A DNA stretch of 64,000 nt from contig DAOTYX010000184.1 of assembly GCA_034434635.1 (NCBI GenBank), positions 3,880-67,879 of the forward strand, written 5' to 3'. Of the stretch, positions 4,323 through 42,217 are shown one piece after another. The stretch's first letter is position 1; the number at the start of each line of letters is the position of its first letter. The notes under the pieces were generated by a model. That model was not told the DNA's origin. It did not search any database and saw nothing but the letters and a program-made list of their open reading frames with translations. Source of the stretch: Anaerolineae bacterium (GTDB taxonomy: Bacteria > Chloroflexota > Anaerolineae > B4-G1 > DUEL01). A program made the translations under genes and the position numbers.

Positions 4323-4326
4323 AGAC

Positions 4327-21439: not shown

Positions 21440-21500
21440 GCTGTCCTTGACAGCCATTCTGTATATTGTATAATATACAATTGCCCGCCCGAACGGCAAA
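21440..21500 (+). promoter_or_regulatory. Consensus sigma70 promoter (TTGACA-16-TATAAT) with a perfect 15-bp palindrome TTGTATAATATACAA overlapping the -10, followed by AGGAGG RBS
   Basis: TTGACA 21447-21452, TATAAT 21469-21474, palindrome 21466-21480. Small hairpin GGCTGTC/GACAGCC at 21438-21455 may terminate the upstream operon. Confidence 0.65.
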
Positions 21501-21517: not shown

Positions 21518-23221
21518 ATGGGAATCATTCGGCGACTGGATCTCTCGAACGGCACCTGGGCGACATCTCCCCTCGACCCGGCTCTGCGGCGGGACTTCCT
21601 GGGCGGGCTGGGACTGGCCGCCCGGCTGATGGCGGCCGAGGCCGACCTCTCCCTTTCCCCGCTCGACCCGAACCTCCCGTTGATCGTCACCGTCGGGCCG
21701 CTGACCGCGACCGGCTTCCCTGGCGCCAACCGCGTCTGCTTCTTCGGCGTCTCCCCGCTCACCGGATTGGTCGCTCCCAGTTGGATGGGCGGCGAATTCG
21801 GCACCGCCCTGGCCCGCAGCGACACGCAAGCCCTCATCCTGGAAGGGCGCGCCCCTCAACCCTCCATCATCATCCTCAGCGACCAGGGAAACCAACTCCT
21901 CCCCCGCCCTGATCTGTGGGGGCTGACGGCCTCCCAGACCCACGCCGCGCTCAAAAGGGACTATCCCGACCTGCACGCAGTGGTCATTGGTCCGGCGGGC
22001 GAGCGACAGGTGGCCTTCGCCAACGTCCGCGGCAACGAGTCCCACTCGGCAGGGCGATGCGGCATGGGCGCCGTGCTGGGCAGCAAGAACGTCAAGGCGA
22101 TCCTGGCCGGCGGTCAGGCCAGACCGGCCGTAGCCGATCCTGACGGGCTCAAGAAAGTCACGCGCCAGGCAACGCGGGCTGTCCAGGCTTCGGACTTCCT
22201 CCAAAATGTGCAGGGGCCCATCGGCACGCCCAACCTGGTCGCTCCCGTCAACGAGTTCCACGCCTTCCCCACCGCCAACCACCGCGAGCGTTTCTTCCCC
22301 ACCGCCGACCGGGTCTACGGCGAGCGCATCGCTCAGGACTTCGTCGTCCGCCGCAGCACCTGCCCCTTCTGCGCCGTTCGCTGTCGCCTGCACGTGCGCA
22401 TAGACGGCGAGGAGATGGATGCCGCTGAGTACGAGGCCCTCTGGGCCTTCAGCGGCGAGAACAACCTGGATGATTACCCGCAGATCGTCCGTGCGGTCAC
22501 CCTGTGCAACGACCTGGGCATGGACGCCATCTCCGCCGGGGTGACGGTGGCCTTCTACCGCGAACTCACCGGCACGCTGGACAACCCCGACAACATCCCC
22601 GACATCATCCGGCAGATCGCCTATCGCCAGGGGGATGGAGATATCCTGGCGCACGGCACCCGACACGCCGCGGCCCACTTCGGCGTGGACTACGCCATGC
22701 AGGTGAAGGGGCTGGAACTGGCCGCCTACGACCCGCGCAAACTGATCGGCATGGCCATCTCTTATTCCACCGCCAACCGCGGCGGCTGCCACAGCCGCGC
22801 CTGGACGGTGGGGGATGAACTGAGCGGGCGCGACTTCTCGGGCGCGGAACTGGCGGAGATGGTGGCCCGTTACCACGACGCTGGCTGCGTGCGCGACTCG
22901 CTCATCGAGTGCACCTTCCTCGATGGCACCGTGCGTCCCTTCTACGCCCCTGCGCTCACCTGCATCACCGGCGAGTCGTTCGACGACGAGGCGCTGGCCC
23001 GCACCGGCGAGCGGATCTACACCCTGGAACGGGCGCTGAATGTGCAACGCGGCGTCCATGCTGGGTTGGACACCCTCCCGCGCCGCCTGCTTGATGGCCT
23101 GGTCAGCCCCGTCAAGTACTACGACGGCATGCGGGTCTACTACCAACTGCGCGACTGGGACGACCAGGGCCGTCCCAGTCCTCGTCGGCTGCAGGCTCTG
23201 GGGTTGGACTTCCTCGCCTGA
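21518..23221 (+). CDS. Aldehyde:ferredoxin oxidoreductase (AOR) family tungsto/molybdo-pterin enzyme
   Basis: AOR N-domain (GPLTATGFPGANRVCFFGVSPLTG), FeS Cys motif CPFCAVRC, C-terminal AOR domains. Confidence 0.85.
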   Translation: MGIIRRLDLSNGTWATSPLDPALRRDFLGGLGLAARLMAAEADLSLSPLDPNLPLIVTVGPLTATGFPGANRVCFFGVSPLTGLVAPSWMGGEFGTALARSDTQALILEGRAPQPSIIILSDQGNQLLPRPDLWGLTASQTHAALKRDYPDLHAVVIGPAGERQVAFANVRGNESHSAGRCGMGAVLGSKNVKAILAGGQARPAVADPDGLKKVTRQATRAVQASDFLQNVQGPIGTPNLVAPVNEFHAFPTANHRERFFPTADRVYGERIAQDFVVRRSTCPFCAVRCRLHVRIDGEEMDAAEYEALWAFSGENNLDDYPQIVRAVTLCNDLGMDAISAGVTVAFYRELTGTLDNPDNIPDIIRQIAYRQGDGDILAHGTRHAAAHFGVDYAMQVKGLELAAYDPRKLIGMAISYSTANRGGCHSRAWTVGDELSGRDFSGAELAEMVARYHDAGCVRDSLIECTFLDGTVRPFYAPALTCITGESFDDEALARTGERIYTLERALNVQRGVHAGLDTLPRRLLDGLVSPVKYYDGMRVYYQLRDWDDQGRPSPRRLQALGLDFLA

Positions 23222-23281: not shown

Positions 23282-24586
23282 ATGAAGATCGGCGCACGTC
23301 TGGCAGTGACGATGACGGATCAGGGGGTGATCCGCAACCCCCTCATCGAGGTCGCCGGGGAGCGGATCGTCCGCGTTCAGGCAGAGGGTGCTGACGAGAA
23401 ACCCGACCTGTACGTGGATGGCATCATCATCCCCGGCCTGATCAGCAGCCATACCCATTTGCACGGCCTGGTGGCCTATGGCCACCCCGTGCCGGCGCCA
23501 GCGGGTTTCTGGCCCTTCCTCCGCGAGTACTGGTGGCCCTACGTCGAGGACGTGCTGCGTACAGATGACGTGGCCAGCCTGGCCGCCTACGCCGCGATCC
23601 TGCACCTGAAGAACGGCTACACCTGTTTCTGTGACGTGATGGAGGCCCCCTATGCCGAGCCGGGCTTCATGCTGGCCGAAGCGGAGGCGGTCGCCGCAAC
23701 CGGAGCGCGCGCGTTCGTCTCCAACGAGGCCACAGAACGGGCCGGCCCGGAGATCGCCCGCAAACTCTTGGCGGAGAACGAGCGCATTCTCTCCCTCGAC
23801 GGCCTGGTGCGCGGGGTGATGAGCGTGCACACCACCTTCTCCTGTAGCGGCCCCTACATCCAGCAGGCCAAGGAGATCGCCCGTCGCCACGGAGCGATCT
23901 TCCACCTGCACGTCTCCGAGGGGACCTACCACGTCGAGGATACCCTGCAGCGCTTCGGCCAGCGGCCCGTCCCCTATTTGCGCGATCTGGGCGTGCTGGA
24001 TGAGTACACCCTGGCCTCACAGTGTGTCCACCTGACCGATGAGGAGATCGCCATCATGGCGGAGACGGGGACGCGCATCAGCCACAACCCGGTGTCGAAC
24101 ATGGAGATCGGCACCGGCGCAGCCCCGCTGGCCAGGATGCTCAGGGCTGGCGCCGAGGTCAGCCTGGGGGATGATGGCTTCATCCGCGCCTTCGACCCCT
24201 TCGTCAACTTCAGCACCACCCTCCTGCTCCACTCGCTGATCAGTCCTGGCGAGGTTTCCGCTGCCGAAGTCTTCGCCCTGCACACGACCAGCGCAGCGCG
24301 GGCGCTTCACCTGGATGCGGGCCGGCTGGCCCCCGGCGCCCTGGCCGACCTGGTGATCCTGCGCGACCACTCTCCCTCCCCGCTGCTGCCGGAGAACGTC
24401 ATCTACCACCTGGTCGTCGGCGCGCTGAGCAGTGATGTGAGCCACGTGATGGTGAACGGACGCATGGTGGTGGCTGACGGCCGTGTGACCACAGCGGACG
24501 AGGAACAGGCGCGCGCCCGCGCTGCCGCCACGATCTCCCGTCTGTGGGAGGGGGCACGCCGCGGCCGGGCAGGAGGAGGAGTCTGA
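23282..24586 (+). CDS. Amidohydrolase-superfamily enzyme (second; deaminase / chlorohydrolase-like)
   Basis: IIPGLISSHTHLHG HxH motif, HLHVSE, and the C-terminal Asp. Confidence 0.85.
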   Translation: MKIGARLAVTMTDQGVIRNPLIEVAGERIVRVQAEGADEKPDLYVDGIIIPGLISSHTHLHGLVAYGHPVPAPAGFWPFLREYWWPYVEDVLRTDDVASLAAYAAILHLKNGYTCFCDVMEAPYAEPGFMLAEAEAVAATGARAFVSNEATERAGPEIARKLLAENERILSLDGLVRGVMSVHTTFSCSGPYIQQAKEIARRHGAIFHLHVSEGTYHVEDTLQRFGQRPVPYLRDLGVLDEYTLASQCVHLTDEEIAIMAETGTRISHNPVSNMEIGTGAAPLARMLRAGAEVSLGDDGFIRAFDPFVNFSTTLLLHSLISPGEVSAAEVFALHTTSAARALHLDAGRLAPGALADLVILRDHSPSPLLPENVIYHLVVGALSSDVSHVMVNGRMVVADGRVTTADEEQARARAAATISRLWEGARRGRAGGGV

Positions 24587-27500
24587 TGTGGCGCTCATAC
24601 CATCTGGCGACCTCGGTTGAGGATGCGCTGCAGGCTCTGCAACGGGAGCAGGGCCAGGCGCGGCTCGTCGCCGGCGGCACCGATCTGGTGTTGCAGGTGC
24701 GCGAGGGCAAGTTCACCCCTCAGTGTTTGGTGGACACCACGCGCATCCCCGAACTTGAGGAGATCGCTATCGAAGGGGATCGCATCCTGGTGGGGGCCAA
24801 CGTCACCTTCCATCGCCTGTGGACCTCGCCGCAGGTCAATGCAGCCGGCTTTGTGCTGGCCGAGGCGGCTCGCCACGTCGCCGCCTGGGCCATCCAGAAC
24901 GTGGGCACGCTGGCCGGCAACGTCGTCAGCGCGCAGCCGGCCGGCGATGGTAGCATCGCCCTGGTGGCCCTGGGAGCCGAGGCGGAGATTACCCGCCTCG
25001 ACGGCCGTCGCTGGGTGGCGGTCTCCAGCCTCTACGCCGGCCCTGGCCGCTCCCGCCTCGACCCGACGCGGGAGATGATCACCCGCTTCCGCTGGCGGCT
25101 CCCCGCGCCGCACCAGGCCTCAGCCTATGAGCGCATTGCCCGCCGCGAGGTGATGTCGCTTCCCATCGCCTGCTGCGGCGTGGACCTGGAACTCACGCCC
25201 GACCTGGAGCACATCGCCTGGGTGCGCATCGCCCTGGGGCCGGTGGCCGACACCCCCTTCCGCGCCACCTGCGCCGAGGACGCCCTGCGCGGCGCCCGCT
25301 GCGAGGAGGTGGACTACGCTTACGCTGCCGAACAGGCCGCCTTTGCCTGTACCCTGCGCAGCAGCCGTCTGCGCGCCAGCCGCGAGTACCGCGAGGAAGT
25401 GGTGGAGGTACTGGTGCGACGGGCGCTGCGGCGGGCGGTCGAAGCGGCGCGCAGCGGCGAGCCCCGCAGCGTGGCTGGCCGCTTCACCTGGGAGCGGCGC
25501 TGGGCGAATGGCGTGGCCAGTCCCCCGGAGGGTGGTCGCATCACCTTCACGCTCAACGGTCAGCCCTGTACTGTGAGGGTGGACCCGGCAAGGACGCTGG
25601 CCCAGGTGCTGCGCGAGGACCTGGGGTTGACCGGCACGAAGATCGGCTGCGACGAAGGGGACTGTGGCGCCTGTATGGTCCTCCTCGATGGCCAGCCCGT
25701 GACCTCGTGCATCCTCCCGGCCTTCAAGGTGCACGGACGACAGGTGCGGACCATCGAGGGAGTATCCGACGGAGAGCAACTGCATCCCATTCAGCAGGCT
25801 TTCCTCTACCACGACGCCATCCAGTGCGGCTACTGCACGCCGGGGATGGTGATGGCTGCCAATGCCCTGCTGGCCGACCTGCCCGACCCGACGCCGGAGG
25901 AGATCAAGATCGCTCTGGGGAGCAACTACTGCCGCTGCACCGGTTATGTGAAGATCGTGGACGCAGTACAGGATGCGGCTGCGGTCCTTCGCGGAGCCAG
26001 GCAGGAGATCACCCGTCGCGCCGCGCCGCGCAAGGGGGCCCTGGCCCGCGTGACCGGGCGTGAGGTCTACGCTGGAGACATGCGCCTGGACGGGATGCTT
26101 TATGGCCGTCTGGTCTGGAGCCAGCACCCCCACGCGGAGATTCTGAGCATAGATACGCGCGCGGCGGAGGAGACACCAGGGGTGGTGCGGGTGATTACCC
26201 ACCGCGACGTGCCTGGCACCAACGCCTTCGGCTCCTGGGGCTACGACCAACCAGCCCTGGCCGAGGGCAAGGTGCTCTACGTGGGTGAGGTGGTCGCTGC
26301 GGTCTTTGCCGAAACGCCGGAGGCGGCGGAGGCGGGCGCCGCGCGGGTGCGCGTCGAGTACCGTCCGTTGCCGGGGGTCTTCACCCCACAGGACGCGCTG
26401 CGGCCCGACGCCCCCGTCCTCAAGGGCGACGACAACATCTTCTACCGCTCGCGGGTGGAGAAGGGAGATGTGGAGGCAGGCTTCGCCCAGGCGGACGTGA
26501 TCATCGAGGATGACTACACCACCCCGGCCATCGAGCATGCCTTCCTGGAGACCGAGGCGGGGGTAGGGGTGATGGAGGGTGACGTCGTCACCATCTACCA
26601 GGCCACCCAGTGGCCGCCCGGTGACCGGCAACAGATCGCCGACATCCTCGGCCTGCCGCTGGAGCGGGTGCGCATCGTCCAGACGCCGGTAGGTGGGGCG
26701 TTCGGCGGCAAGATGGACCTGACCACTCAGCCGGTGCTGGCCCTGGGTACCTTCCTGACCGGTCGCCCGGTCAAGGTGGTGCTCTCGCGCCCAGAGTCCA
26801 TCCGCATGCACCAGAAACGCCACCCCTTCTGGTTACACTACAAGGTGGGGGCCACCCGCGATGGCCGTATCGTGGCCTTCGAGGGGCAATTGCTGCTCGA
26901 CGGCGGGGCCTACCGCTCCACGACCGATGACGTGCTCGAACAGGCAACGGTCTTCTCCTCCGGCCCTTACGCCATCCCCAACGTGCGCGTCACCGGCATG
27001 GCCGTGCGCACCAACAACGCCCCTTGTGGAGCCATGCGCGGCTTCGGCGCCAACCAGGTCTGCTTTGCGATGGAGTCCACCATTGACCAGCTGGCGCGGC
27101 GGCTGAACATGGACCCCTTTCAGATCCGCCGCATCAACATGTACGATGTGGGGTCGGAACTGGTCACTGGCCAGATCCTGCGGCACAGTGTGGGGGCGAA
27201 ACCCACACTGGATGCTGCGGAGGCGGCGTTGCGCCGCGAGCGGCTGCCTGCGCCACGCCCGGGCCGACGCATCGGGGTAGGGGTGGCCTCGGGGATGAAG
27301 AACGTGGGCCTGGGCATCGGCGGCGACGACAGCGTGCACGTGGCGATGTGCCTGCAACCGGACGGCAGGCTGCTCCTCCGAGAGGGAGCCATTGACCTGG
27401 GCCAGGGAGCCAACACGGTGATGGCCCGTATCGCTGCCAGCGCTGTAGGGGTGGAGGACGGGTTGGTGGCCGTCATCGCGGGCGATACGCGCGAGGGGGA

Positions 27501-28287
27501 GGACGGCGGCATTACCGCCGCCTCACGTCAGACCTTCGTCACGGGCCGCGCCTGCGCCGAGGTGGCGCAGCAGTTCCGCGCGCGCCTGCTGGAGGTCGCC
27601 GCCCGGACCTATCAGGTGGACCCGCGGCGGTTGACGTTGACGCCAGAAGGACGGTTTGTCGATCTGGAACAGGAAACGCCCGTGGCCACGCTGGAGGACC
27701 TGGCCCGCGTCCTTCACGAGCGTGGCGAAGACCTGGCCGTGACCTATCACCATCAACCCCCCCGCACCTATCGCATCCTTACCCCTGCCCAGCGGCAGGA
27801 GGCAGGCATCACCGAGGAGGACTACATCAACTATCCGGCGCTGTGCTACATGTGCCACGTCGTCATCGTGGAAGTGGACGAGGAGACGGGTCACGTGGAG
27901 GTGCTCAAGGTCATCGCCGCGCATGACGTGGGCCGGGCGATCATCCCCACAGCGGTCGAGGGCCAGATCGAGGGGGCTGTGGTGATGGGCCTGGGCTACG
28001 CGCTGACGGAGGAGTTCGTCCAGGAAGAGGGGCGCATCCTTTCCGACTCGCTGCACAAGATCGCGCTGCCGCGCAGCACGCTGCCAGTGCAGATCGTGCC
28101 GCTGATCGTGGAGGACCCCGACCCGGGCGGTCCTTTCGGCGCCAAGGGGTTGGCCGAAGCCGGCGCAGTCGCCACAGCGCCGGCGGTGACCAACGCCATC
28201 TTCGACGCGGTGGGGGTGCGCATCCGCAACCTGCCAGCGACGAAAGAGAAGGTGTTGTTGGGGATGCGGGGTGTGGAGACGCGGTGA
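24586..28287 (+). CDS. Single-polypeptide xanthine-dehydrogenase-family molybdenum hydroxylase: FAD (CoxM-like) + [2Fe-2S] (CoxS-like) + MoCo (CoxL-like) domains fused
   Basis: Continuous 1233-codon ORF. N-terminal FAD_binding_5 segment (GGTDLV), two 2Fe-2S motifs (CDEGDCGACMV, CGYCTPG...CRCTGY), then an aldehyde-oxidase/XDH Mo domain of about 750 aa. ATG overlaps the upstream stop (TGATG). Confidence 0.85.
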   Translation: MWRSYHLATSVEDALQALQREQGQARLVAGGTDLVLQVREGKFTPQCLVDTTRIPELEEIAIEGDRILVGANVTFHRLWTSPQVNAAGFVLAEAARHVAAWAIQNVGTLAGNVVSAQPAGDGSIALVALGAEAEITRLDGRRWVAVSSLYAGPGRSRLDPTREMITRFRWRLPAPHQASAYERIARREVMSLPIACCGVDLELTPDLEHIAWVRIALGPVADTPFRATCAEDALRGARCEEVDYAYAAEQAAFACTLRSSRLRASREYREEVVEVLVRRALRRAVEAARSGEPRSVAGRFTWERRWANGVASPPEGGRITFTLNGQPCTVRVDPARTLAQVLREDLGLTGTKIGCDEGDCGACMVLLDGQPVTSCILPAFKVHGRQVRTIEGVSDGEQLHPIQQAFLYHDAIQCGYCTPGMVMAANALLADLPDPTPEEIKIALGSNYCRCTGYVKIVDAVQDAAAVLRGARQEITRRAAPRKGALARVTGREVYAGDMRLDGMLYGRLVWSQHPHAEILSIDTRAAEETPGVVRVITHRDVPGTNAFGSWGYDQPALAEGKVLYVGEVVAAVFAETPEAAEAGAARVRVEYRPLPGVFTPQDALRPDAPVLKGDDNIFYRSRVEKGDVEAGFAQADVIIEDDYTTPAIEHAFLETEAGVGVMEGDVVTIYQATQWPPGDRQQIADILGLPLERVRIVQTPVGGAFGGKMDLTTQPVLALGTFLTGRPVKVVLSRPESIRMHQKRHPFWLHYKVGATRDGRIVAFEGQLLLDGGAYRSTTDDVLEQATVFSSGPYAIPNVRVTGMAVRTNNAPCGAMRGFGANQVCFAMESTIDQLARRLNMDPFQIRRINMYDVGSELVTGQILRHSVGAKPTLDAAEAALRRERLPAPRPGRRIGVGVASGMKNVGLGIGGDDSVHVAMCLQPDGRLLLREGAIDLGQGANTVMARIAASAVGVEDGLVAVIAGDTREGEDGGITAASRQTFVTGRACAEVAQQFRARLLEVAARTYQVDPRRLTLTPEGRFVDLEQETPVATLEDLARVLHERGEDLAVTYHHQPPRTYRILTPAQRQEAGITEEDYINYPALCYMCHVVIVEVDEETGHVEVLKVIAAHDVGRAIIPTAVEGQIEGAVVMGLGYALTEEFVQEEGRILSDSLHKIALPRSTLPVQIVPLIVEDPDPGGPFGAKGLAEAGAVATAPAVTNAIFDAVGVRIRNLPATKEKVLLGMRGVETR

Positions 28288-28326: not shown

Positions 28327-29547
28327 ATGAACAGGAGTCCGCAGGAGATTCGTGAGATTGATCAGAAGTACGTGGCGCAGCTCTTCCCGACGCCCAAGTC
28401 CATCCTGGCAACGGAAGGGCGGGGTTGTATCCTCAAGACGGCTGAGGGACGGGAGTATCTCGACCTCATCGGGGGCATCGCCGTCACCGCCACCGGCCAC
28501 TCGCATCCCAAGGTGGTCGAGGCGATCTGCGAACAGGCCCGGCAGATCATCCACGGGAACGCCTTCGGCAACTTCATCTACCCCATCCAGGCCGAACTGG
28601 CGCAACTGATCGCCGAACGCGCCCCCGGCAACCTGGAGAGCACCTTCTTCTGCAACAGCGGGGCGGAGGCGGTGGAAGGGGCGATCAAACTGGCGGTCAA
28701 GGCCACACGCCGTCGCCGCCTCATCTACTTCAGCCGCGCCTTCCACGGCCGTACCTACATGACCCTCTCGGTCAGCGCCAAGCGGCTGTATAAGGACCCC
28801 TTCGAGCCGCTCTACCCCTGGGCGACGGAGGTGCCCTTCAATGACATCCGCACCACCCGGGCGATGATGAACGACGATGTCGCCGCGGTCATCGTCGAGC
28901 CGATCCAGGGCGAAGGCGGCATCCGCCCGTGCGATGATGACTTCCTGCCCGCCCTGCGTGAGGTGACCCGCGAGTTCGGGGCGATGCTGATCGTGGACGA
29001 GATCCAGACCGGCTTCGGGCGCACCGGAGCCTGGTTCGCCTGCGAGCACTACGGCGTGGTGCCCGACATCATGACGATGGCCAAGGGCATCGCCTCCGGC
29101 ATGCCGCTGGGCGGCTTCATCGCCTCGCGGGAACTGATGGCCGAGATGTCCGACCCGCCGCTGGTCCACTGCACCACCTACGGCGGCAACCCGGTCTGCT
29201 GCGCGGCGGCGGTGGCGACCATCAAGGTGATCGAGGAGGAGAACCTGCTCCAGAACGCGCGCGATCGTGGCGCGGAACTGATCGGCGGCATGAATGAACT
29301 GAAGCAGCGGTACCCTCATCGCATCAATGAGATTCGCGGACGTGGCCTGCTGACGGCGATGGATTTCCATCGCCCGGAGGACACCGCGGCCTTCGTCGGC
29401 AAGGTCAACGAACTGGGCGCGGTCGTCTGCTGGACCGTCAACTCGGGCACGACGGTGCGCGTCTCACCGCCGCTGGTGATCACCAAAGAACAGGTGGCGC
29501 GGGCGTTGGACATCTTCGACCGTGCCCTGGCGGCGCTGGACAGATAG
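28327..29547 (+). CDS. Class-III PLP aminotransferase, paralog C (closest paralog of 2617..3849)
   Basis: [20 protein letters not shown]; aligns to paralog A at roughly 50-55% identity. Confidence 0.9.
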
Positions 29548-29550
29548 ACG

Positions 29551-30684
29551 ATGAAAGCCTCCACAGCCATTCTTGTCGTCAACCTGCTGGTAGATATGGT
29601 GGAGCGGGGCAAGCCGTTCCCCATGCCGCCCGAATACGGCGAGATCGCCGCGCGCACCGTGGCCTTTGTCCGCCGGGCGCAGGAGGCCGGCTACCCGGTG
29701 ATCTTCATCCAGGACCAGCACCGTCCCGACGACAAGGAGTTCACCGATTTTGCTGTGGGCCAGCCGCACGCTGTGCGCGACACAGAAGGGGCGCAGTTGA
29801 TCGCCGGGTTGGAGCCAGTGGCGGGGCGGGACTACGCTGTGGGCAAGCGACGCTTCAGCGCCTTCTTCGGCACCGATCTGGACCTCTACCTGCGCGAGGA
29901 GGGCATCCGTCGGCTGGTGGTCGTCGGGCGCCCCAGCAACGTCTGTGCGCTCTACTCCGCCGCCGACGGCCTCTTCCGCCGCTACGAGATGATAGCCATC
30001 TCTGACTGCCTCTACTCGCGGGACGGGGCGATGCATGAGCGGAGCATGCGCGAGTTCGCGGCCACGCTGGGTGAGGTGATGACCTCGGAGGCCTTCCTGG
30101 CTGCCCCGCCGCCGGAGCCGCCCCCGTTCCCGGAGCGGTTGGCGGTGCTGGTGGTGAACGTCAACAAGGACCTGGTGGAGAACAACCTCCCCGAGAGCGG
30201 CGCGCGGGTCGCTGCCCGGTTGGGGGAGATGCGCGCGCTGCTGGAGGTGGCCCGCGGTGGCGGCCTCCCGATTCTGTACGCGATGGACGCCCACCTCCCC
30301 GACGACTGGGAGTTTCGCCGCCGCGTGCCGCACGGGATCGCCGGCACTCCCGGCGCAGCGGTGGTGGACCCGTTAGCGCCGTTGCCGGGGGACGTCCTCT
30401 TCTCGAAGCGCACCTACGACGCTTTCTATGAGACGGGTCTTGATCCCTGGCTGCGCGAGCGGGGGATCACCCGCCTGGTGGTCATCGGCGCGCCGACGAA
30501 CGTGGACCTGCGCTACACCGTCGTCTCGGCCTACAATGCCCGCTACCGCCCGATCGTGGTCAAGGACTGCACCGATGCCAGCACCGAGGAGTTCTACGCC
30601 GAGACCCTGCAGGACCTGTTCTTCTGTCGCCGCATGACCCTGGAGCAGTTCCGAGAATTCATCTCCGAGGCTTCCGAGGCTTGA
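29551..30684 (+). CDS. Tandem fusion of two isochorismatase-family (cysteine-hydrolase) domains; domain 2 has Asp in place of the nucleophilic Cys
   Basis: Domain 1 has D..K..C (VVVGRPSNVCALYSA). Domain 2 has the aligned segment VVIGAPTNVDLRYTV. Internal repeat of about 185 aa. Confidence 0.75.
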   Translation: MKASTAILVVNLLVDMVERGKPFPMPPEYGEIAARTVAFVRRAQEAGYPVIFIQDQHRPDDKEFTDFAVGQPHAVRDTEGAQLIAGLEPVAGRDYAVGKRRFSAFFGTDLDLYLREEGIRRLVVVGRPSNVCALYSAADGLFRRYEMIAISDCLYSRDGAMHERSMREFAATLGEVMTSEAFLAAPPPEPPPFPERLAVLVVNVNKDLVENNLPESGARVAARLGEMRALLEVARGGGLPILYAMDAHLPDDWEFRRRVPHGIAGTPGAAVVDPLAPLPGDVLFSKRTYDAFYETGLDPWLRERGITRLVVIGAPTNVDLRYTVVSAYNARYRPIVVKDCTDASTEEFYAETLQDLFFCRRMTLEQFREFISEASEA

Positions 30685-30720
30685 GAGGCCTCGGGAACCT
30701 GGAGAGGAGGAGAGACAAAA

Positions 30721-31875
30721 ATGGACCTGAGCATCCGTATCGGCAACCTGGAACTGGAGAATCCGTTCATCGTCGCTGCCGGCCCGCCTGGGGTGACCGG
30801 CGCCTCGCTCAAGCGCATGGCCTCTGGCCGCCCCGGCGCAGTGGTCACCAAGTCCATCGGGGTGGTCCCTTCGCCGGGCCAGCGGCTGAGCCTCTCCCAC
30901 GTCAAGGGGGACCGCCACAGCCTGATCCTCACCGATCCCTGGTCGGCGCACACCTTCGAGGAGTGGTGCGAGCGGGAGATGAAGGTCGCCAGGTCGGGTG
31001 GGGTGCCCGTCATCATGAACCTGCAGGCGGTGACGCACACCCCGGCAGAGGACATCGCCCGCATGGCTCCGCGCGCCGTGGAGGCCGGAGCCGACGCCAT
31101 CGAACTCTCGGCCTTCGGCTCCGCTCCCAACGTGGTGGAAGGGGCAGGGATCGGCGCGGTGCAGAGCCCCCAACGCACCTACGAAGTCGTCCGCGCCGCC
31201 AAACAGGCGGTGAAGGTGCCCGTGATCGCCAAACTGCTGCCGGAACCCTCCAACCTGATTGACCTGGTGCGGGCAGCGGAGGAGGCCGGGGCGGACGCGA
31301 TCGCCTCGCGGGACACCATCTTCCCGGCCATCTCGTTCGACATCTATACCCGCCGCCCCAAGGTGGCGCGCACCATCGGCACCTGGATGCCGGAACTCTC
31401 CGGGCGGGCCATCCGCGCCAACGCGGTCGGCTACGTCGTGGAGATTTATCGCCTCACCCGCCTGCCGATCATCGGTATCGGCGGCGTGGCGACCTGGGAG
31501 GACGCGGTGGAGATGATCATCGCCGGGGCCACGGCGGTAGGGGTCTGTACGGCGGCGATGGTCGAGGGGCCCAAGATCTTCCCCCGCCTGGTCAAAGGGC
31601 TGGCCACCTTCCTGGAGGAGCAGGGGGTAACGATGGAGGAACTGCGCGGCAGCGGCCTGGAAGGCATGCGCCAGGTCAATGAGATGGCCCTCCATCGCCT
31701 GCATGTGACGATTGACAAGGACCTGTGCACCCAATGCAATATCTGCGACACCGTCTGCCCGGTGCAGGCAGTGCGCCAGGGCGAGGGATATAACTTCATC
31801 GTAGACGAGGAGTGCATCAACTGCGGCTTCTGCGCCGCCAACTGCCCAGAGGAGGCGATCCGCGTGGCGGCCTAG
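30721..31875 (+). CDS. Dihydroorotate/dihydropyrimidine-dehydrogenase-fold FMN protein with C-terminal 2x[4Fe-4S] ferredoxin domain (PreA-like, copy 1)
   Basis: DHOD TIM-barrel N-terminus plus CTQCNICDTVCP / CINCGFCAANCP. Confidence 0.8.
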   Translation: MDLSIRIGNLELENPFIVAAGPPGVTGASLKRMASGRPGAVVTKSIGVVPSPGQRLSLSHVKGDRHSLILTDPWSAHTFEEWCEREMKVARSGGVPVIMNLQAVTHTPAEDIARMAPRAVEAGADAIELSAFGSAPNVVEGAGIGAVQSPQRTYEVVRAAKQAVKVPVIAKLLPEPSNLIDLVRAAEEAGADAIASRDTIFPAISFDIYTRRPKVARTIGTWMPELSGRAIRANAVGYVVEIYRLTRLPIIGIGGVATWEDAVEMIIAGATAVGVCTAAMVEGPKIFPRLVKGLATFLEEQGVTMEELRGSGLEGMRQVNEMALHRLHVTIDKDLCTQCNICDTVCPVQAVRQGEGYNFIVDEECINCGFCAANCPEEAIRVAA

Positions 31876-31901
31876 ACCTCCCGTGGGCGAGAGGTAGAAC
31901 A

Positions 31902-33290
31902 ATGAGCAAGACGATCAGCGAACAGATAGCCGACCTGACTCTCAACCTCCGTTACGAAGACCTGCCGGAACCGGCGCGTCGGCACGCCAGGAACCTGGTG
32001 TTGGACCTGCTGGGCTCGATGATCGGCTCCCGGCGCGTCCCCTCCAGCCGGATCGCCGCCGAGGCGGCGCTGGAGTTGGGCGGGCCGGAGGAGAGTACCG
32101 TCATCGGTCACAACCGCAAGGTGGCAGCCCCCAATGCCGCCTTCGCCAACGCCATTCAGTCCTACGCCTTCGACTTCGCCGACGACCACAATGAGTCCAA
32201 CGCCCACCCCAGCGTGGCGACCATCCCTGCCAGCCTGGCTCTGGGAGAGCATCTACACGCCAGCGGGCGAGAGGTGCTTACGGCCATTGCTCTGGGCAAC
32301 GAGGTGGTGTGTCGGCTCGGGGCGGCCTTCCTGGGTAAGACCTACTACCAGGGCTTTCACCCCTCCAGCACCTGCGGCACCTTCGGCGCGACGGTCTCTG
32401 CTGCCCGCCTCTTGGGTCTCGACTGGCAGCAGACGGTCTGGGCGCAGGGTATCGCTGGCAGCCAGGCCGCCGGGCTGATGGCCTGGAACACCGCTGGCTC
32501 GATCACCAAGCGGCTCCAGGCTGGCCATCCCGCGTGGGTGGGGATCATGTCCGCCCGGCTGGCGAAGAAGGGCTTCGACGGCCCACGGGAGATCATCGAG
32601 GGCACCGATGGCTTTATGCAGGCTTACTCCTACAACCGCCAGTACGACACTCGGCTCATCACCGAAGGCCTGGGCCAGGAGTGGACCTTCGCCCGCTCCA
32701 GCATCAAGGTCTACCCGTGCTGTCGCTACTCCGGCGGACATCTGGACGCCTGTCTGGACATCTACGCCCGTTATCGGCCCGATCCGCGGCGTATTCGCCG
32801 CATCTTCATCCGCTCTTCCGATTACACCATCCGCCTGCTGGCCGCGCCGCGCAAGCGTGACCCCCAGACGATCGTGGACACACAGTTCAGCATGCCCTGG
32901 CAGGCGGCTATCGCCCTGATTGACGGCAAGATTGACGTGGACACCTTCACCGAGGCGAACATCCACCGCCCCGACGTGCGCGAACTGATGAGCAAGGTAG
33001 AATGGGTGGTGGACGAGGAGTTCGAGCGGCGTTACCCTGCCCACTACTCCTGCGCCGTGACCGTGACGATGGACGACGGCACGGAGTACACCACCGTGGT
33101 GGATGACCCCAAGGGGGACTTCCGTAACCCGGTGACACAGGAGGAATTGGAGGCGAAGTTTACCAACCTGGCTCGCCGGGAGATCGCTGACGGGGAGCGG
33201 ATCGCCCGCATCATCGCCTTCGTGCGTGACCTGGAACAGGCGCCGGATATCGGCGCGCTTTTTGCGCTGCTCCAGACTTCCGATGTCTGA
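31902..33290 (+). CDS. MmgE/PrpD-family protein (2-methylcitrate-dehydratase-like)
   Basis: Collinear with PrpD N- and C-domains. ATG 31902 chosen over the track start at 31812. Confidence 0.85.
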   Translation: MSKTISEQIADLTLNLRYEDLPEPARRHARNLVLDLLGSMIGSRRVPSSRIAAEAALELGGPEESTVIGHNRKVAAPNAAFANAIQSYAFDFADDHNESNAHPSVATIPASLALGEHLHASGREVLTAIALGNEVVCRLGAAFLGKTYYQGFHPSSTCGTFGATVSAARLLGLDWQQTVWAQGIAGSQAAGLMAWNTAGSITKRLQAGHPAWVGIMSARLAKKGFDGPREIIEGTDGFMQAYSYNRQYDTRLITEGLGQEWTFARSSIKVYPCCRYSGGHLDACLDIYARYRPDPRRIRRIFIRSSDYTIRLLAAPRKRDPQTIVDTQFSMPWQAAIALIDGKIDVDTFTEANIHRPDVRELMSKVEWVVDEEFERRYPAHYSCAVTVTMDDGTEYTTVVDDPKGDFRNPVTQEELEAKFTNLARREIADGERIARIIAFVRDLEQAPDIGALFALLQTSDV

Positions 33291-33336
33291 AAGACATCGG
33301 AAGTCCGAATGGGAAGAGAATGAGGAGGAATTGACG

Positions 33337-34329
33337 ATGGACCTGTCTCTGCGACGCCGCGCCAGCCTGAAAGGGCGCGACTTCATCACCCTGGCCGACT
33401 ACGACCAGGAGGACCTGTACTTCCTGTTGGACACCGCCGAAGAACTCAAGCGGGCTCAGGCGATGGGCGCACCTCATCGCTGGCTGGAGGGCAAGAGCCT
33501 CGGCATGCTCTTCGGCAAACCCTCTACTCGCACGCGCATATCCTTCGAGACCGGCATGACCCAGTTGGGCGGCCACGCCCAGTTCTACACCGCCGACGAC
33601 CTGCAACTGGCGCACAAGGAGAGCTGGGTGGACACCGCGCGGGCGATGGATCGTTACCTGGATGGCATCGCCGTCCGTCTCTACAACATCCAGCCCTATG
33701 GCGAGTCGCGCCGGGTGCTGAACACCCTGGCCGAAGCGGCGCGCATCCCGGTCATCAACATGCTCGACGACGGTGAGCACCCCTGCCAGGTGCTGTGTGA
33801 TGTGATGACGGTGCGCGAGAAACTGCGCACCTTCGAGGGCAAGAAGATCGTCGTCTCCTGGGCTTACTCCCCGCGTGACAAGTCGGCCGGTGTGCCGCAG
33901 GGTTGGGTGGTGGCTGCCGCGATCCTGGGCATCAACCTGACCCTGGCCTACCCGGAGGGGTTCGACCTGGACCCGGAGTACATGGAGAAGGCTCGTGGCT
34001 TCGCCGCGATGAGCGGCGCTCGCCTGGAGATCGTCCACGACATGGCCGAGGCCGCCCGCGATGCCCACATCTTCTACGCCAAGTCCTGGGGTAGTTTCAC
34101 CCTCCCGCCCGAAGAGGTAAAGCGGCGTGACGCGGAACTACGGCAGTGGATCGTTACGGATGAGTTGTTGGATCGGGCCGATCGGACGGTGAAGTTCATG
34201 CACTGCCTGCCGGCCGACCGCAACCTGGAGGTCACCGACGCGGTGATAGACGGTCCCCGTTCCATCGTCTATGACCAACTAGAGAATCGGCTGCACGCAC
34301 AGAAGGCGATCCTGGCCCTCACGCTGTGA
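33337..34329 (+). CDS. Ornithine/aspartate-carbamoyltransferase-fold enzyme (OTC/YgeW-like transcarbamylase)
   Basis: STRTR carbamoyl-phosphate motif, HCLP motif. ATG 33337 after GAGGAGG. Confidence 0.85.
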   Translation: MDLSLRRRASLKGRDFITLADYDQEDLYFLLDTAEELKRAQAMGAPHRWLEGKSLGMLFGKPSTRTRISFETGMTQLGGHAQFYTADDLQLAHKESWVDTARAMDRYLDGIAVRLYNIQPYGESRRVLNTLAEAARIPVINMLDDGEHPCQVLCDVMTVREKLRTFEGKKIVVSWAYSPRDKSAGVPQGWVVAAAILGINLTLAYPEGFDLDPEYMEKARGFAAMSGARLEIVHDMAEAARDAHIFYAKSWGSFTLPPEEVKRRDAELRQWIVTDELLDRADRTVKFMHCLPADRNLEVTDAVIDGPRSIVYDQLENRLHAQKAILALTL

Positions 34330-34354
34330 GCAGCGCCCGGAGAGACAAGAAGCA

Positions 34355-35629
34355 ATGGGCATGACCTTGACCGAGAAGATCCTCGCCCGCGCCTGCGGGC
34401 GAGAACAGGTCCGGGCGGGGGAGATCATCCGCGCGGCTGTGGATCTGGTCTTCGCCAGCGATGTGACCATGCCGTTGGCAGCCATCGAACTGGAGCGCAT
34501 GCAGGTCGAGCGACTCTTCGACCCGGAGCGGGTGGCCATCATCTGCGACCACTTCACGCCGAATGCTACGGTGGAGGGGGCGCAGAGGGTGAAGCAGTTG
34601 CGCGACTTCGCCCGCCGATACGGAGTGCACCACTTCTATGAGCCGGGGTGCGGGGGGAACTTCGGCGTCGAGCACACCCTGCTGCCAGAAGAGGGGTTGG
34701 TCCGCCCCGGCATGGTCATCGTCGGCGGTGACTCGCACACGACCTCTTACGGGGCGCTGGGGGCCTTCGCTTCCGGCTTCGGCAGCACCGACATCGCTGC
34801 AGCGATGGCCCTCGGCGAGTTGTGGCTGCGGGTACCTGCGACGATGCGCTTCGTCTTCTCGGGCGCGCTGCCCCGGTGGGTGGGCGGCAAGGACCTCATC
34901 CTCCACACCATCGGGCGCATCGGCGTTGCCGGCGCGCTCTACCGGGCCATGGAATTCGACGGTCCGGCTATCGCCGCGTTGAGCGTAGAGCAGCGGCTGA
35001 CGATGTGCAATATGGCCGTCGAAGCCGGGGCGAAGAACGGTTTGATGCCGGTGGATGAGGAGACCTGCCGCTATCTGGCGGCACACGGTGTTGGCGAAGC
35101 ACCTTCTCTTTCCAGTGATCCCGATGCCAACTTCTACTCTGTGACCGAGATAGACGTCAGCGACCTGGAGCCGCAAGTGGCCTGTCCCTTCTCCCCCGAT
35201 AACGTGCAACCGGTCAGTGCCCTGCGGGACACGCGGCTGGATGCCGTCTTCATCGGGTCCTGCACCAACGGCCGCATCGAGGACCTGCGCGTGGCCGCGT
35301 CTATCCTGGGCGGCAGGCGCATCTACCCCGGCGTTCGCCTCCTGGTCATTCCGGCCACGCAGCGAGTCTACCAGCAGGCGCTGCGGGAGGGCTTGCTGAT
35401 GGCCTTCGTACAGGCCGGGGCGGCGGTTGGCGCGCCTACCTGTGGGCCATGCTTCGGCGGACACACCGGGCTGCTTGCCGCTGGCGAGCGGGCGCTCTCC
35501 ACCTCCAACCGCAACTTCGTCGGGCGTATGGGGCACCCGCAGAGCCAGGTCTACCTGGCCTCGGCGGCAGTGGCGGCGGCCTCCGCCGTGCTGGGCCGCA
35601 TTGCCCATCCTGAGGAGGTGATGGGATGA
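34355..35629 (+). CDS. Aconitase-family hydro-lyase large subunit (LeuC / dimethylmalate-dehydratase-like)
   Basis: 424 aa; Cys ligands of the aconitase FeS cluster (GSCTNGR, CGPCFG). Confidence 0.85.
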   Translation: MGMTLTEKILARACGREQVRAGEIIRAAVDLVFASDVTMPLAAIELERMQVERLFDPERVAIICDHFTPNATVEGAQRVKQLRDFARRYGVHHFYEPGCGGNFGVEHTLLPEEGLVRPGMVIVGGDSHTTSYGALGAFASGFGSTDIAAAMALGELWLRVPATMRFVFSGALPRWVGGKDLILHTIGRIGVAGALYRAMEFDGPAIAALSVEQRLTMCNMAVEAGAKNGLMPVDEETCRYLAAHGVGEAPSLSSDPDANFYSVTEIDVSDLEPQVACPFSPDNVQPVSALRDTRLDAVFIGSCTNGRIEDLRVAASILGGRRIYPGVRLLVIPATQRVYQQALREGLLMAFVQAGAAVGAPTCGPCFGGHTGLLAAGERALSTSNRNFVGRMGHPQSQVYLASAAVAAASAVLGRIAHPEEVMG

Positions 35630-36147
35630 TCGTGCAGGGACGCGCCTGGAGGCTTGGCGACAACGTGGACACTGACCAGTTGCTGCCAGGCCGCTACCTT
35701 AGCCTGACCGAGCCGGCAGAACTGGCCCGCCACTGCCTGGAGGATGTGCGTCCCGACTTCTGCGTCGGCGTGAAAGCGGGCGATCTCCTGGTGGCTGGCG
35801 AGAACCTGGGCTGCGGCAGTTCGCGGGAGCATGCCCCGTTGGCGCTCAAAACGTTGGGCATCTCATGCCTGGTGGCGGCCTCCTTCGCGCGCATCTTCTT
35901 CCGCAACAGCATCAACCTGGGGCTGCCGGCCCTGACCTGCCCGGAGGCCGTGGCGGGCATCGCCGATGGGGATTTGCTGCGCATTGACCTGGAGAGCGGC
36001 GAGATCGAGAACCTCACCCACCCCGCGCGCTTCCAGGCCCCGCCGCTGCCCGACTTTCTGACCGAGATTATCCGCGCCGGCGGGATGACGGCTTACGTGC
36101 GCGGGGCCCTCGCCCGCCGACAGGCGGACCATCGTCTGGGGAGGTGA
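35626..36147 (+). CDS. Aconitase-family hydro-lyase small subunit (LeuD-like)
   Basis: 173 aa swivel domain; start overlaps the upstream stop. Confidence 0.85.
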   Translation: MIVQGRAWRLGDNVDTDQLLPGRYLSLTEPAELARHCLEDVRPDFCVGVKAGDLLVAGENLGCGSSREHAPLALKTLGISCLVAASFARIFFRNSINLGLPALTCPEAVAGIADGDLLRIDLESGEIENLTHPARFQAPPLPDFLTEIIRAGGMTAYVRGALARRQADHRLGR

Positions 36148-36148
36148 G

Positions 36149-37318
36149 ATGACCTTCTACGGCGAACAGAAACCCATCCGCTGCGTGATCATGCGCGGCG
36201 GCACCAGTCGGGCGCTCTTCATCATGCGCAATGACCTGCCTGCCGACCCGGCGCTGCGTGATGCGGTCATCCTGCGCCTCTACGGCAGCCCTGACGTGCG
36301 CCAGATTGATGGCCTGGGGGGCGCAGACCCGCTGACCAGCAAACTGGCCATCATCGGTCCGCCCACCCGTCCTGACGCGGACGTGGACTACACCTTCGGC
36401 CAGGTGAGCATCACCACGCCCTTTGTGGACACGGCGGGCAACTGCGGCAACATCTCCGCCGCTGTTGGCCCCTTCGCCATTGACGAGGGGTTGGTGGACG
36501 CGGTCGAGCCGGTGACGAACGTGCGCATCCACCAGACCAACACCCGCTGCATCCTTGTCGCTGAAGTGCCGGTGCGCGGCGGCAAGGCGGCGGTGGAGGG
36601 GGACTACCACATTGATGGCGTGCCGGGCAGCGGCGCGTTGATTCGCCTGGACTTCTCCGATACCGCTGGTGCGGTCACCGGGCGTCTGCTCCCTACCGGC
36701 AACCCAGTGGATCGCCTGGAGGTGCCTGGCGTGGGCGTGGTGGAGGCTTCTCTCGTAGATGCCGGGACGCCCTGTGTCTTCGTCCGTGCCGCCGACCTGG
36801 GCCTGCGGGGCGTGGAAACCCCGGCGGAGATCGACGCTGACCGCGCGCTGAACGAGCGCATCGAGCGCATCCGCGGCACGGCGGCGGTGATGATGGGGCT
36901 GGTCGAGACCTGGTCCGAAGCGGCCACACGCAGCCCCTATCTCCCTTTCTTTGCCATCATTGCCCCGCCAGCGGACTACGTGGACTTCACCACCGGGCGC
37001 ACGGTACGGGCGGATGAGGTGGATTTCCTCTCCCGTCTGCTGTTTATGCTGAAGATGCACAAGGCCTACCCTGTGACCGGCTCGGTCTGCACCGGCGCGG
37101 CGGCGCGCATACCCGGCACCATTGTCCACGAAGCGGCGAGCGCCTCCTCGCGTGAGCGCTCACTGGTGCTCATCGGCCACCCTGCCGGCGTGCTGGATGT
37201 GGAAGTGTCGGTGGAAGCGGAGGGCGCAGGCTACCGCCTGCGGCGCGCGGCGATCGGCCGTACTGCCCGCCGTCTGATAGAAGGATACGCCTTTGTCCCC
37301 TGGAGCACATTCGAGTGA
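36149..37318 (+). CDS. PrpF/AcnD-accessory family isomerase (methylaconitate / methylitaconate isomerase fold)
   Basis: 389 aa; conserved CVIMRGGTSR N-terminus and Cys/Gly-rich catalytic segments typical of PrpF. Confidence 0.8.
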   Translation: MTFYGEQKPIRCVIMRGGTSRALFIMRNDLPADPALRDAVILRLYGSPDVRQIDGLGGADPLTSKLAIIGPPTRPDADVDYTFGQVSITTPFVDTAGNCGNISAAVGPFAIDEGLVDAVEPVTNVRIHQTNTRCILVAEVPVRGGKAAVEGDYHIDGVPGSGALIRLDFSDTAGAVTGRLLPTGNPVDRLEVPGVGVVEASLVDAGTPCVFVRAADLGLRGVETPAEIDADRALNERIERIRGTAAVMMGLVETWSEAATRSPYLPFFAIIAPPADYVDFTTGRTVRADEVDFLSRLLFMLKMHKAYPVTGSVCTGAAARIPGTIVHEAASASSRERSLVLIGHPAGVLDVEVSVEAEGAGYRLRRAAIGRTARRLIEGYAFVPWSTFE

Positions 37319-37377
37319 CCGTCTCTTCCTCCGTGCGACGAGACGTGATGATTTCCTGAAAAAGAGGTACATGACCT

Positions 37378-38933: not shown

Positions 38934-38934
38934 G

Positions 38935-39843: not shown

Positions 39844-39866
39844 TCCAGAGGGATCGGAGGAACGGC

Positions 39867-40814: not shown

Positions 40815-40850
40815 GTGGGGACAGCAATCCATGATGGGAAGGAGGAAGAT

Positions 40851-42206: not shown

Positions 42207-42217
42207 AGGAGGTAGAC

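Follow-up and report, generated by a model that had tools for sequence, protein, structure and literature searches.

The 64,000-nt stretch of DNA considered here, from an uncultured Anaerolineales bacterium of the Chloroflexota class Anaerolineae (contig DAOTYX010000184.1; hereafter the window), encodes, at positions 24586 to 28287, a 1233-amino-acid (aa) protein of the xanthine oxidase family that carries a flavin adenine dinucleotide (FAD) module, two iron-sulfur (FeS) domains and a molybdenum (Mo) cofactor module on a single chain. Enzymes of this family are normally assembled from two to four separate proteins. The gene, termed the fused gene below, and the elements that accompany it are as follows.

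24586..28287, + strand: fused gene for a 1233-aa single-chain FAD-[2Fe-2S]x2-Mo enzyme of the xanthine oxidase family (open reading frame and Pfam)
24571..24580, + strand: Shine-Dalgarno sequence AGGAGGAGGA of the fused gene (read directly from the sequence)
24598..25434, + strand: FAD module (FAD_binding_5 and CO_deh_flav_C), equivalent to CoxM, NdhF or XdhB (Pfam)
25435..25539, + strand: FAD-to-FeS linker, residues 284-318, with a conserved AGRF-x-W-x-R-x-W motif (alignment)
25546..25971, + strand: two [2Fe-2S] domains (Fer2 and Fer2_2), equivalent to CoxS or NdhS (Pfam)
26053..28077, + strand: Mo-cofactor module (hammerhead, MoCoBD_1 and MoCoBD_2), equivalent to NdhL plus NdhM or to CoxL (Pfam)
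26713..26715, + strand: Met710, at the position of Glu802 in bovine xanthine dehydrogenase (XDH) (alignment with rat XDH)
26941..26943, + strand: Gln786, at the position of bovine XDH Arg880 and NdhL Arg319 (alignments)
27031..27048, + strand: AMRGFG active-site loop, residues 816-821 (aligns with AFRGFG of XDH and nicotinate dehydrogenase (NDH) and with AYRCSF of CO dehydrogenase (CODH))
28156..28158, + strand: Glu1191, predicted catalytic base, at the position of bovine XDH Glu1261 and of Glu869 in the aldehyde oxidoreductase MOP (alignments with MOP and NdhM)

The open reading frame (ORF) containing the fused gene runs from 24544 to 28287 on the forward strand, and the ATG at 24586 was chosen as the start. 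This codon sits 5-6 nt 3′ of GGAGGAGGAG, and a Met-Trp start occurs at the identical point in all 21 aligned homologues. The A of the ATG doubles as the final base of the stop codon TGA (24584-24586) of an upstream amidohydrolase gene. A preliminary annotation made from the DNA letters (the sequence-only reading) had proposed translational coupling through this TGATG overlap, and both the overlap itself and a Pfam Amidohydro_1 match to the upstream product agree with the proposal. The DNA has 67% GC (62-70% along the window, with one stretch at 58%), and long spurious ORFs are common on both strands. The frame at 24586-28287 is no chance ORF, because its product contains seven ordered Pfam domains with E-values from 8e-9 down to 1e-81: FAD_binding_5 (residues 5-168), CO_deh_flav_C (183-283), Fer2 (321-373), Fer2_2 (389-462), Ald_Xan_dh_C (490-596), MoCoBD_1 (616-852) and MoCoBD_2 (879-1164). 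This order bears out the description in the sequence-only reading of one uninterrupted 1233-codon ORF with FAD, 2Fe-2S and Mo domains in that succession.

Within FAD_binding_5 (E = 8e-37), the conserved residues A29-G30-G31 and T108-L109-A110-G111-N112 supply the AGG and T-x-G-G/N motifs described for CoxM-type FAD domains (PMC8305194). The eight Cys residues predicted to ligate the two clusters (C355, C360, C363 and C375; C414, C417, C449 and C451) are all invariant in 74 sequences, and the hammerhead, MoCoBD_1 and MoCoBD_2 domains of the Mo module match Pfam at 9e-30, 1e-81 and 6e-62, respectively. We generated an AlphaFold (AF2) model of residues 1-1200 of the 1233-aa protein, which has a predicted template modelling score (pTM) of 0.90 and a predicted local distance difference test score (pLDDT) of 88. 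The linker, whose W306 is invariant in the family alignment, is modelled with a pLDDT of ~78-83. The FeS-Mo part of the model superposes on MOP of Desulfovibrio gigas with a template modelling (TM) score of 0.88, and the fold also matches xanthine oxidoreductase (XOR). Its predicted domains and fold make the product of the fused gene a complete molybdenum hydroxylase of the xanthine oxidase family, with the FAD module, the two [2Fe-2S] domains and the Mo module following one another on a single polypeptide.

The 1233-aa protein is present at 90% identity or more in five assembly records (Logan, three from ENA and one from NCBI/JGI). About 27 further clusters (formed at 90% identity) lie at 64-75% identity to it; they share its seven domains and are 1228-1266 aa long. 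The 21 homologues that were aligned from this identity range are colinear across both module junctions and keep the linker motif; indels are confined to P0019 (five residues inserted) and P0016 (one residue deleted). Three independent contigs (L001, L003 and L004) have the same gene order around the fused gene, and one family member is attributed by NCBI to an Anaerolineales metagenome-assembled genome. The five records and the ~27 syntenic clusters of matching length indicate that the fusion is no assembly artefact, and the refuting condition named in the sequence-only reading, in-frame stops hidden by an assembly error that merged genes, was negative, the frame being intact in independent assemblies.

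The residues equivalent to bovine XDH Gln767, Arg912, Phe914 and Glu1261 are Gln675, Arg818, Phe820 and Glu1191, each invariant in the 74 sequences. The CODH loop AYRCSF, which contains the Cu-binding Cys, is equivalent to AFRGFG of XDH and NDH (PMC8305194), and a GGAFGGK motif considered as the counterpart of the CODH loop was rejected on the basis of that alignment. Because the fused protein carries AMRGFG at residues 816-821 rather than AYRCSF, it should be a hydroxylase and not a CODH. This test of the active-site loop was thus negative for CODH, and with the catalytic Glu it upholds the earlier assignment to the hydroxylases. A Mo-Cu CO dehydrogenase was accordingly rejected, as the loop lacks the Cu-binding Cys; the CO_dehy_Mo_lg model scores 274 against a cut-off of 991, and similarity to CoxL is lower (207-244 bits).

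By analogy with the family, the enzyme would use water to hydroxylate its substrate at Mo, either at a C-H adjacent to a ring nitrogen or at that of an aldehyde, Glu1191 serving as the base. Two electrons would then pass from Mo through the two [2Fe-2S] clusters to FAD and on to an external acceptor, and the enzyme is probably a homodimer like its relatives.

The substrate pocket departs from that of XDH. The Glu802 position is Met in 21 of 22 family members and Glu in most FeS-Mo relatives, and the Arg880 and His884 positions are Gln and Phe, respectively, in all 22. Most neighbouring FeS-Mo proteins keep Glu802, Arg880 and His884. Since Met, Gln and Phe replace these three residues, the substrate is expected to be a different compound, and as aligned the pocket matches no characterised specificity. 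Across the FeS-Mo clades, the residues at positions 710, 786 and 790 fall into the types E/R/H (XDH-like), E/N/F, L/Q/F, L/N/F and M/Q/F, a split suggesting that the FeS-Mo enzymes of Anaerolineae and Bacillota include several uncharacterised substrate specificities.

A second family trait lies in the FAD module, where six Cys residues (C47, C196, C197, C229, C239 and C255) are conserved in the 22-member family, four of them invariant and two in 20-21 of the 22. Other FAD modules lack Cys at these six columns or have it only rarely (in at most 11 of 149). An additional metal site or disulfides could be built from these residues, or they could be neutral replacements of buried residues.

Among solved structures, the nearest to the Mo module by sequence is the selenium-containing NDH of Eubacterium barkeri (PDB 3HRD), whose subunits NdhF, NdhS, NdhL and NdhM correspond in order to the modules of the single chain. 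Its NdhL subunit scores 210 bits for residues 639-880, with ~45% identity in the Mo core, against ~104 for XDH, and NdhM is the best solved match for the C-terminal third of the protein (156 bits). The 45% Mo-core identity to NDH is no higher than that to uncharacterised FeS-Mo proteins. In NDH, selenium is a terminal Mo ligand that depends on SelD, YqeB and YqeC, a trait for which no sequence signature is known; these accessory genes were not seen among the window ORFs scanned. Two-module FeS-Mo enzymes (MOP, TIGR03311 and the ~920-936-aa homologues from Anaerolineae and Bacillota) are colinear with the FeS-Mo part of the fused protein, which is 40-48% identical to metagenomic two-module homologues. 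Relative to these enzymes, the fused protein adds an N-terminal FAD module of ~290 residues and a linker, and it lacks the Glu802/Arg880/His884 set that most of them keep. MOP-type aldehyde oxidoreductases in particular have FeS and Mo domains without flavin. CoxMSL, QorMSL, KdhLMS and XdhABC contain the same three cofactor modules, in many genomes in the gene order M-S-L, but as separate polypeptides.

The relationships of the modules indicate how the gene was assembled. In neighbour-joining (NJ) trees computed on a MAFFT alignment (FeS-Mo part), all 100 bootstraps recover the 22 family members as a monophyletic group, which nests among two-module FeS-Mo proteins of ~920-936 aa. The nearest relatives outside the family are stand-alone FAD subunits for the FAD module (42-47% identity), Anaerolineae FeS-Mo proteins for the FeS module (56-58%) and FeS-Mo proteins for the Mo module (45-48%). 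An unfused arrangement is found in the Anaerolineae locus L007, where the gene for a 304-aa FAD subunit, 40% identical to residues 1-292 of the fused protein, ends 13 nt before a gene for a 930-aa FeS-Mo protein. The nested position of the family, the kinship of its FAD module and the L007 arrangement together argue that the gene arose by fusion of a FAD gene with a FeS-Mo gene.

In the simplest history, a stand-alone FAD-subunit gene would have been joined to the 5′ end of an adjacent FeS-Mo fusion gene with loss of the stop codon between them, and the former intergenic spacer would now be translated as the ~35-residue linker. The linker DNA at 25525-25542 (GGAGGGTGGTCGCATC) resembles the L007 spacer AGGTGGTGTTGTTATG (L007 9988-10003), which comprises the Shine-Dalgarno sequence and ATG of the unfused FeS-Mo gene. 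The segment GGAGGGTGGTCGCATC may be what is left of the spacer that preceded the fusion, with its former ribosome-binding site and start codon. Most family members, but not all, have an acidic residue and then Gly at this position.

Eukaryotic XOR and aldehyde oxidase (AOX) likewise hold FAD, two [2Fe-2S] clusters and Mo on one chain, with the catalytic Gln, the Glu and the Phe914 equivalent kept. Their module order, however, is FeS-FAD-Mo rather than FAD-FeS-Mo, and identity in the structural alignment is only ~20%. Compared with these enzymes, the fused gene represents an independent fusion of bacterial subunit genes.

We also asked how widespread the single-chain architecture is. A 2020 review states that one to three subunits occur and gives no further detail on architecture, and a literature search returned no description of this bacterial FAD-FeS-Mo arrangement. 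Among 80 species-representative genome loci that match residues 5-1228, checked by ORF and Pfam analysis, none has the single-chain fusion; these loci have separate genes, or FeS-Mo genes with non-coding stop-to-stop extensions. A HMMER scan with residues 1-480 recovered many FAD-FeS proteins of 450-500 aa that align colinearly, and fusions of two modules, whether FAD-FeS or FeS-Mo, are abundant. The same scan recovered P0123 (L088 6001-9760), a 903-aa FAD-FeS-hammerhead-MoCoBD_1 protein whose MoCoBD_2 domain is encoded by a separate next gene. This layout is probably no frameshift, because two homologues (903-912 aa) share it. In L088 the MoCoBD_2 gene overlaps the P0123 gene by 38 nt and is followed by a further FAD-subunit gene; the split point of this partial fusion is also that between NdhL and NdhM of E. 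barkeri.

A search with P0123 yielded full-length single-chain proteins of 1178-1238 aa from sources named as Ktedonobacteraceae, Ca. Baltobacteraceae and Ca. Acidoferrales, and the idea that the architecture is limited to one 50%-identity cluster was rejected on this result. The proteins P0282-P0294 from these sources, and P0284, have the identical domain order and are colinear with residues 1-1229 at 35-37% identity; they differ from the window family in their tree positions and pocket residues. Single-chain proteins occupy at least three separate places on the NJ tree, in at least two lineages besides the window family, and fusion or fission must therefore have happened repeatedly. The single chain in FAD, 2Fe-2S, Mo order proposed in the sequence-only reading is upheld; the implied rarity of this architecture has to be softened, since the same order exists in at least two other uncultured lineages and two-module fusions are abundant. 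The single-chain family is uncharacterised, recurs in uncultured bacteria and has so far received only automated names.

Two of the other single-chain genes were viewed in context. P0289 (L092 8001-11672, on a 3.27-Mb contig) lies between a urease operon and aerobic purine/urate genes and is probably a single-chain xanthine dehydrogenase of the aerobic purine pathway. Its neighbours include genes for urate oxidase, HIU hydrolase, OHCU decarboxylase and the allantoin pathway. P0284 (L091 4668-13717) has an amidohydrolase gene on one side and a Bmp ABC transporter on the other. It adjoins a conventional three-gene FAD/FeS/Mo paralogue and AllF/AllG-like genes, so this purine-type locus encodes two xanthine-oxidase-family enzymes. 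The amidohydrolase encoded upstream of the fused gene was considered as an orthologue of those beside the other single-chain families, and this was rejected (no similarity in L091, 23% identity in L092).

In the window, the fused gene is the third gene of a large operon, with the following features.

21447..21474, + strand: sigma-70-type promoter TTGACA-16-TATAAT, upstream of the AOR-family gene (12 of 12 consensus positions)
21466..21480, no strand assigned: palindrome TTGTATA-A-TATACAA over the -10 box, putative operator (sequence)
21518..23221, + strand: gene of the tungsten/molybdenum aldehyde:ferredoxin oxidoreductase (AOR) family, first in the operon (Pfam AFOR_N and AFOR_C)
23282..24586, + strand: amidohydrolase of the deaminase/chlorohydrolase (TRZ/ATZ, SsnA-like) type (Pfam Amidohydro_1)
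28327..43432, + strand: downstream genes, mostly with short gaps, class-III aminotransferase first (Pfam and other evidence)
28327-29547, + strand: class-III aminotransferase, fourth in the operon, after the fusion
29551-30684, + strand: tandem isochorismatase-like hydrolase, 377 aa, two domains, in all family loci
30721-31875, + strand: PreA-like reductase (DHO_dh plus 4Fe-4S), the lone PreA-like gene
34355-36147, + strand: LeuC/LeuD (DmdAB-family) dehydratase pair, directly before the PrpF-family gene
36149-37318, + strand: PrpF-family, Mii-like isomerase (PDB 3G7K, E. barkeri 3-methylitaconate isomerase)
40815-43432, + strand: PreT-like/PreA-like pair, related to dihydropyrimidine dehydrogenase, end of the operon

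Transcription of the unit to which the fused gene belongs is likely to begin at this promoter. The core of the palindrome (21467-21479) occurs once in the window and had no match in 100 shuffles. As in the window, a TTGACA and a -10-like box precede the AOR-family gene in L001 (~6778-6812) and L004 (~2347-2392). L001 has an inverted repeat (TGTATAT...ATATACA) at the same position, and the corresponding L004 sequence is AT-rich and less clearly palindromic. A repressor probably uses the inverted repeat over the -10 box as its operator.

The position of the AOR-family gene is conserved in L001, L003 and L004. The best NCBIfam and PDB matches of the amidohydrolase at 23282-24586 are deaminases and chlorohydrolases, all below equivalog cut-offs. 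The aminotransferase that the sequence-only reading placed 3′ of the fusion is the class-III enzyme at 28327; the window contains three such genes in all (2617-3849, 6284-7636 and 28327-29547). The tandem isochorismatase-like protein is weakly similar to RutB, biuret hydrolase and nicotinamidase. After the lone PreA-like gene follow genes for an MmgE/PrpD protein, an OTC-like carbamoyltransferase and the LeuC/LeuD-like dehydratase. The PrpF-family product scores 440 bits to 3-methylitaconate isomerase against 293 for PrpF, and its gene is followed in order by genes for succinyl-CoA-synthetase-like beta and alpha subunits, an HMGL-like lyase, a PreT-like protein and a second PreA-like protein. 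In total, three operon genes are related to dihydropyrimidine dehydrogenase, the lone PreA-like gene and the terminal pair.

Synteny is kept down to the ATP-grasp gene in L001; L003 and L004 end earlier, at the PrpF gene. In all three contigs, a CN_hydrolase (nitrilase/amidase superfamily) gene lies between the isochorismatase-like and PreA-like genes (L001 16178-17038, L003 10183-11019, L004 11645-12490), where the window has a 36-nt gap (30684-30721). A 3-hydroxyacyl-CoA dehydrogenase gene (~20480-21427) is present in the window and absent from L001 and L004. Elsewhere the window, a region rich in genes for the catabolism of amines and nitrogen compounds, contains a gene for an OYE-type/2,4-dienoyl-CoA-reductase-like flavoprotein (4213-6267) and one for an amine-oxidase-like flavoprotein (11469-13115).

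Upstream of the operon are genes for a Bmp-type nucleoside/nucleobase ABC importer, an HDAC-like hydrolase and a second deaminase-type amidohydrolase. Bmp ABC transporters adjoin the window family and also its relatives in L007, L090 and L091. An enamidase identity was rejected for both amidohydrolases, which are of the deaminase type, and neither enamidase-like nor B12-dependent mutase genes were found among the window ORFs scanned. An Rfam scan for a riboswitch that would reveal the substrate reported only a tRNA. 3-Methylitaconate isomerase and a DmdAB-family dehydratase are hallmark late enzymes of nicotinate fermentation, and genes of both types share this operon with the NDH-like hydroxylase. 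The content of the operon, the importer and deaminase genes upstream of it and the recurrence of Bmp importers favour a nucleobase-like or other N-heterocyclic substrate.

These observations lead us to put the probability at roughly three in four that the fused gene encodes a real single-chain FAD-FeS-Mo hydroxylase, derived from fusion of a FAD gene with a FeS-Mo gene, that is neither a CODH nor a canonical XDH and acts on what is probably an N-heterocycle. On the sequence data, the substrate is most probably purine-, pteridine- or pyridine-like. The earlier suggestion of a nicotinate- or purine-type enzyme was right about the neighbourhood, and NDH is indeed the closest solved Mo structure; the specificity residues, however, are those of neither XDH nor NDH. 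Several points weigh against our interpretation. The activity, cofactor content, electron acceptor and substrate of the enzyme are all inferred from sequence, and the trees include no characterised reference sequences. The relic ribosome-binding site in the linker is suggestive only. The fused protein misses every NCBIfam equivalog cut-off, and the operon mixes gene types of several known pathways and fully matches none.

The strongest competitor is a FAD-containing aldehyde oxidoreductase, similar to PaoABC or AOX or to MOP with a flavin added, that oxidises an aldehyde derived from the aminotransferase. Aldehyde oxidases characteristically have hydrophobic residues where XDH has Glu802 and Arg880, both of which are ‘never conserved’ in them (PMC5746545). 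The replacement of these residues by Met and Gln, together with the flanking aminotransferase and AOR-family genes (the former directly downstream of the fusion, the latter upstream), makes an aldehyde substrate a serious alternative and counts against an N-heterocycle. Desulfovibrio MOP is moreover the best full-length PDB match in both sequence and fold, and several family members carry the automatic JGI name ‘aldehyde oxidoreductase’. The top rank of MOP arises in part because its FeS and Mo domains share one chain, unlike those of NDH; when only the Mo core is compared, the score of NDH is twice that of MOP or XDH. The aldehyde oxidoreductase model NF045668 gives 590 against a cut-off of 1100, importers of the nucleoside/nucleobase Bmp type recur beside the subfamily, and a dedicated AOR-family enzyme is already encoded two genes upstream. 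On balance we consider an aldehyde substrate unlikely.

A more elaborate version of the N-heterocycle interpretation would make the protein the entry enzyme of an undescribed anaerobic pathway, with the six Cys residues forming a metal or Fe-S site that links it to ferredoxin. Such a pathway would combine ring reduction of the dihydropyrimidine-dehydrogenase type, deaminase and amidase steps and the late steps of nicotinate fermentation, and would end with a CoA-ligase and a lyase in place of dimethylmalate lyase. Taken as a whole, this combination is speculative and we regard it as doubtful.

The protein could also be an orthologue of E. barkeri NDH, that is, NdhFSLM on one chain, in an operon for a nicotinate-fermentation-type pathway. 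The ndhF-S-L-M gene order of E. barkeri (PMC10331938) is reproduced as the module order of the fused protein, although NDH itself consists of four separate polypeptides. The two enzymes also share the AxRGFG loop, a K(L/M)D motif and the catalytic Glu, and no solved structures come closer to the Mo module than NdhL plus NdhM. In the operon, the Mii-like gene (440 bits to 3-methylitaconate isomerase) and the adjoining LeuCD/DmdAB-family dehydratase fit such a pathway. The specificity residues do not. NdhM Tyr13, modelled to hydrogen-bond the ring nitrogen (PMC5746545), aligns with Val907 (NdhM alignment) or Lys905 (XDH Phe1005 alignment), so that the Tyr is not conserved, and NdhL Arg319 is replaced by Gln786. 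Both amidohydrolases are deaminase-type rather than enamidase-like, no B12-dependent mutase was seen among the window ORFs scanned, and the OTC-like, isochorismatase-like and PreT/PreA genes are foreign to the nicotinate pathway. We judge orthology to NDH improbable.

Some members of the xanthine oxidase family, such as 4-hydroxybenzoyl-CoA reductase (4-HBCR) and the 2,8-dioxopurine dehydrogenase of Clostridium sporogenes, work reductively. With such precedents documented (bioRxiv 10.1101/2025.04.24.650524), the physiological direction of the fused enzyme could be reductive, low-potential electrons entering through the FAD module and perhaps through a metal site formed by the family-specific Cys residues. 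The operon does encode ferredoxin-type enzymes (the AOR-family protein and PreA-like proteins with 4Fe-4S domains), and the six Cys are a family trait as described above. However, three of these six replace buried hydrophobic residues (V, L or A), the FAD module lacks an insertion like the one that forms the [4Fe-4S] loop in 4-HBCR beta, and the match to TIGR03195 (4-HBCR beta) is weak and partial, at 104 bits against a cut-off of 405. A reductive role is, in our view, still less probable than identity with NDH.

A canonical XDH with fused subunits is very unlikely. In its favour, the best NCBIfam model is the selenium-dependent XDH (TIGR03311, 645 bits) and pucD scores 540, but these fall short of their cut-offs of 830 and 784, as do the XdhA and xdhB models (439 against 780 and 307 against 850). 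The nearby Bmp importer and deaminase-type amidohydrolases would suit purine breakdown, and a different single-chain family (P0289) does occupy a textbook purine-catabolism cluster. In the window family, by contrast, Glu802, Arg880 and His884 are replaced as described above, in neighbourhood to FeS-Mo clades that keep all three. Orthology to the E. coli ygfK-ssnA-ygfM-xdhD system was rejected separately, with TIGR03313 (XdhD-type) at 315 bits and SsnA at 208 against a cut-off of 444-455. Finally, the idea that an error of assembly or sequencing joined two or three neighbouring genes is effectively refuted: adjacent M-S-L or FAD plus FeS-Mo genes are the rule in the 80 genome loci, so that a lost stop codon would mimic a fusion, but the five assembly records, the 21 homologues colinear through both junctions with their conserved linker motif, and the independent lineages with the same architecture all speak against it.

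The fused gene is an uncharacterised variant of a well-known enzyme and no new kind; it does not overturn the current understanding of the xanthine oxidase family. It indicates that bacteria reached a single-chain molybdenum hydroxylase by a route other than the eukaryotic one (FAD-FeS-Mo versus FeS-FAD-Mo), apparently more than once. The family is a natural experiment on the influence of linker topology on electron transfer from cofactor to cofactor. The industrial use of nicotinate dehydrogenase is the regioselective hydroxylation of N-heterocycles. An enzyme encoded by one gene could be easier to express than bacterial hydroxylases of two to four subunits, which would benefit biocatalysis. 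For the Anaerolineae themselves, a pocket fixed as Met/Gln/Phe and an operon that is both large and conserved suggest a substrate and a pathway that have yet to be defined.

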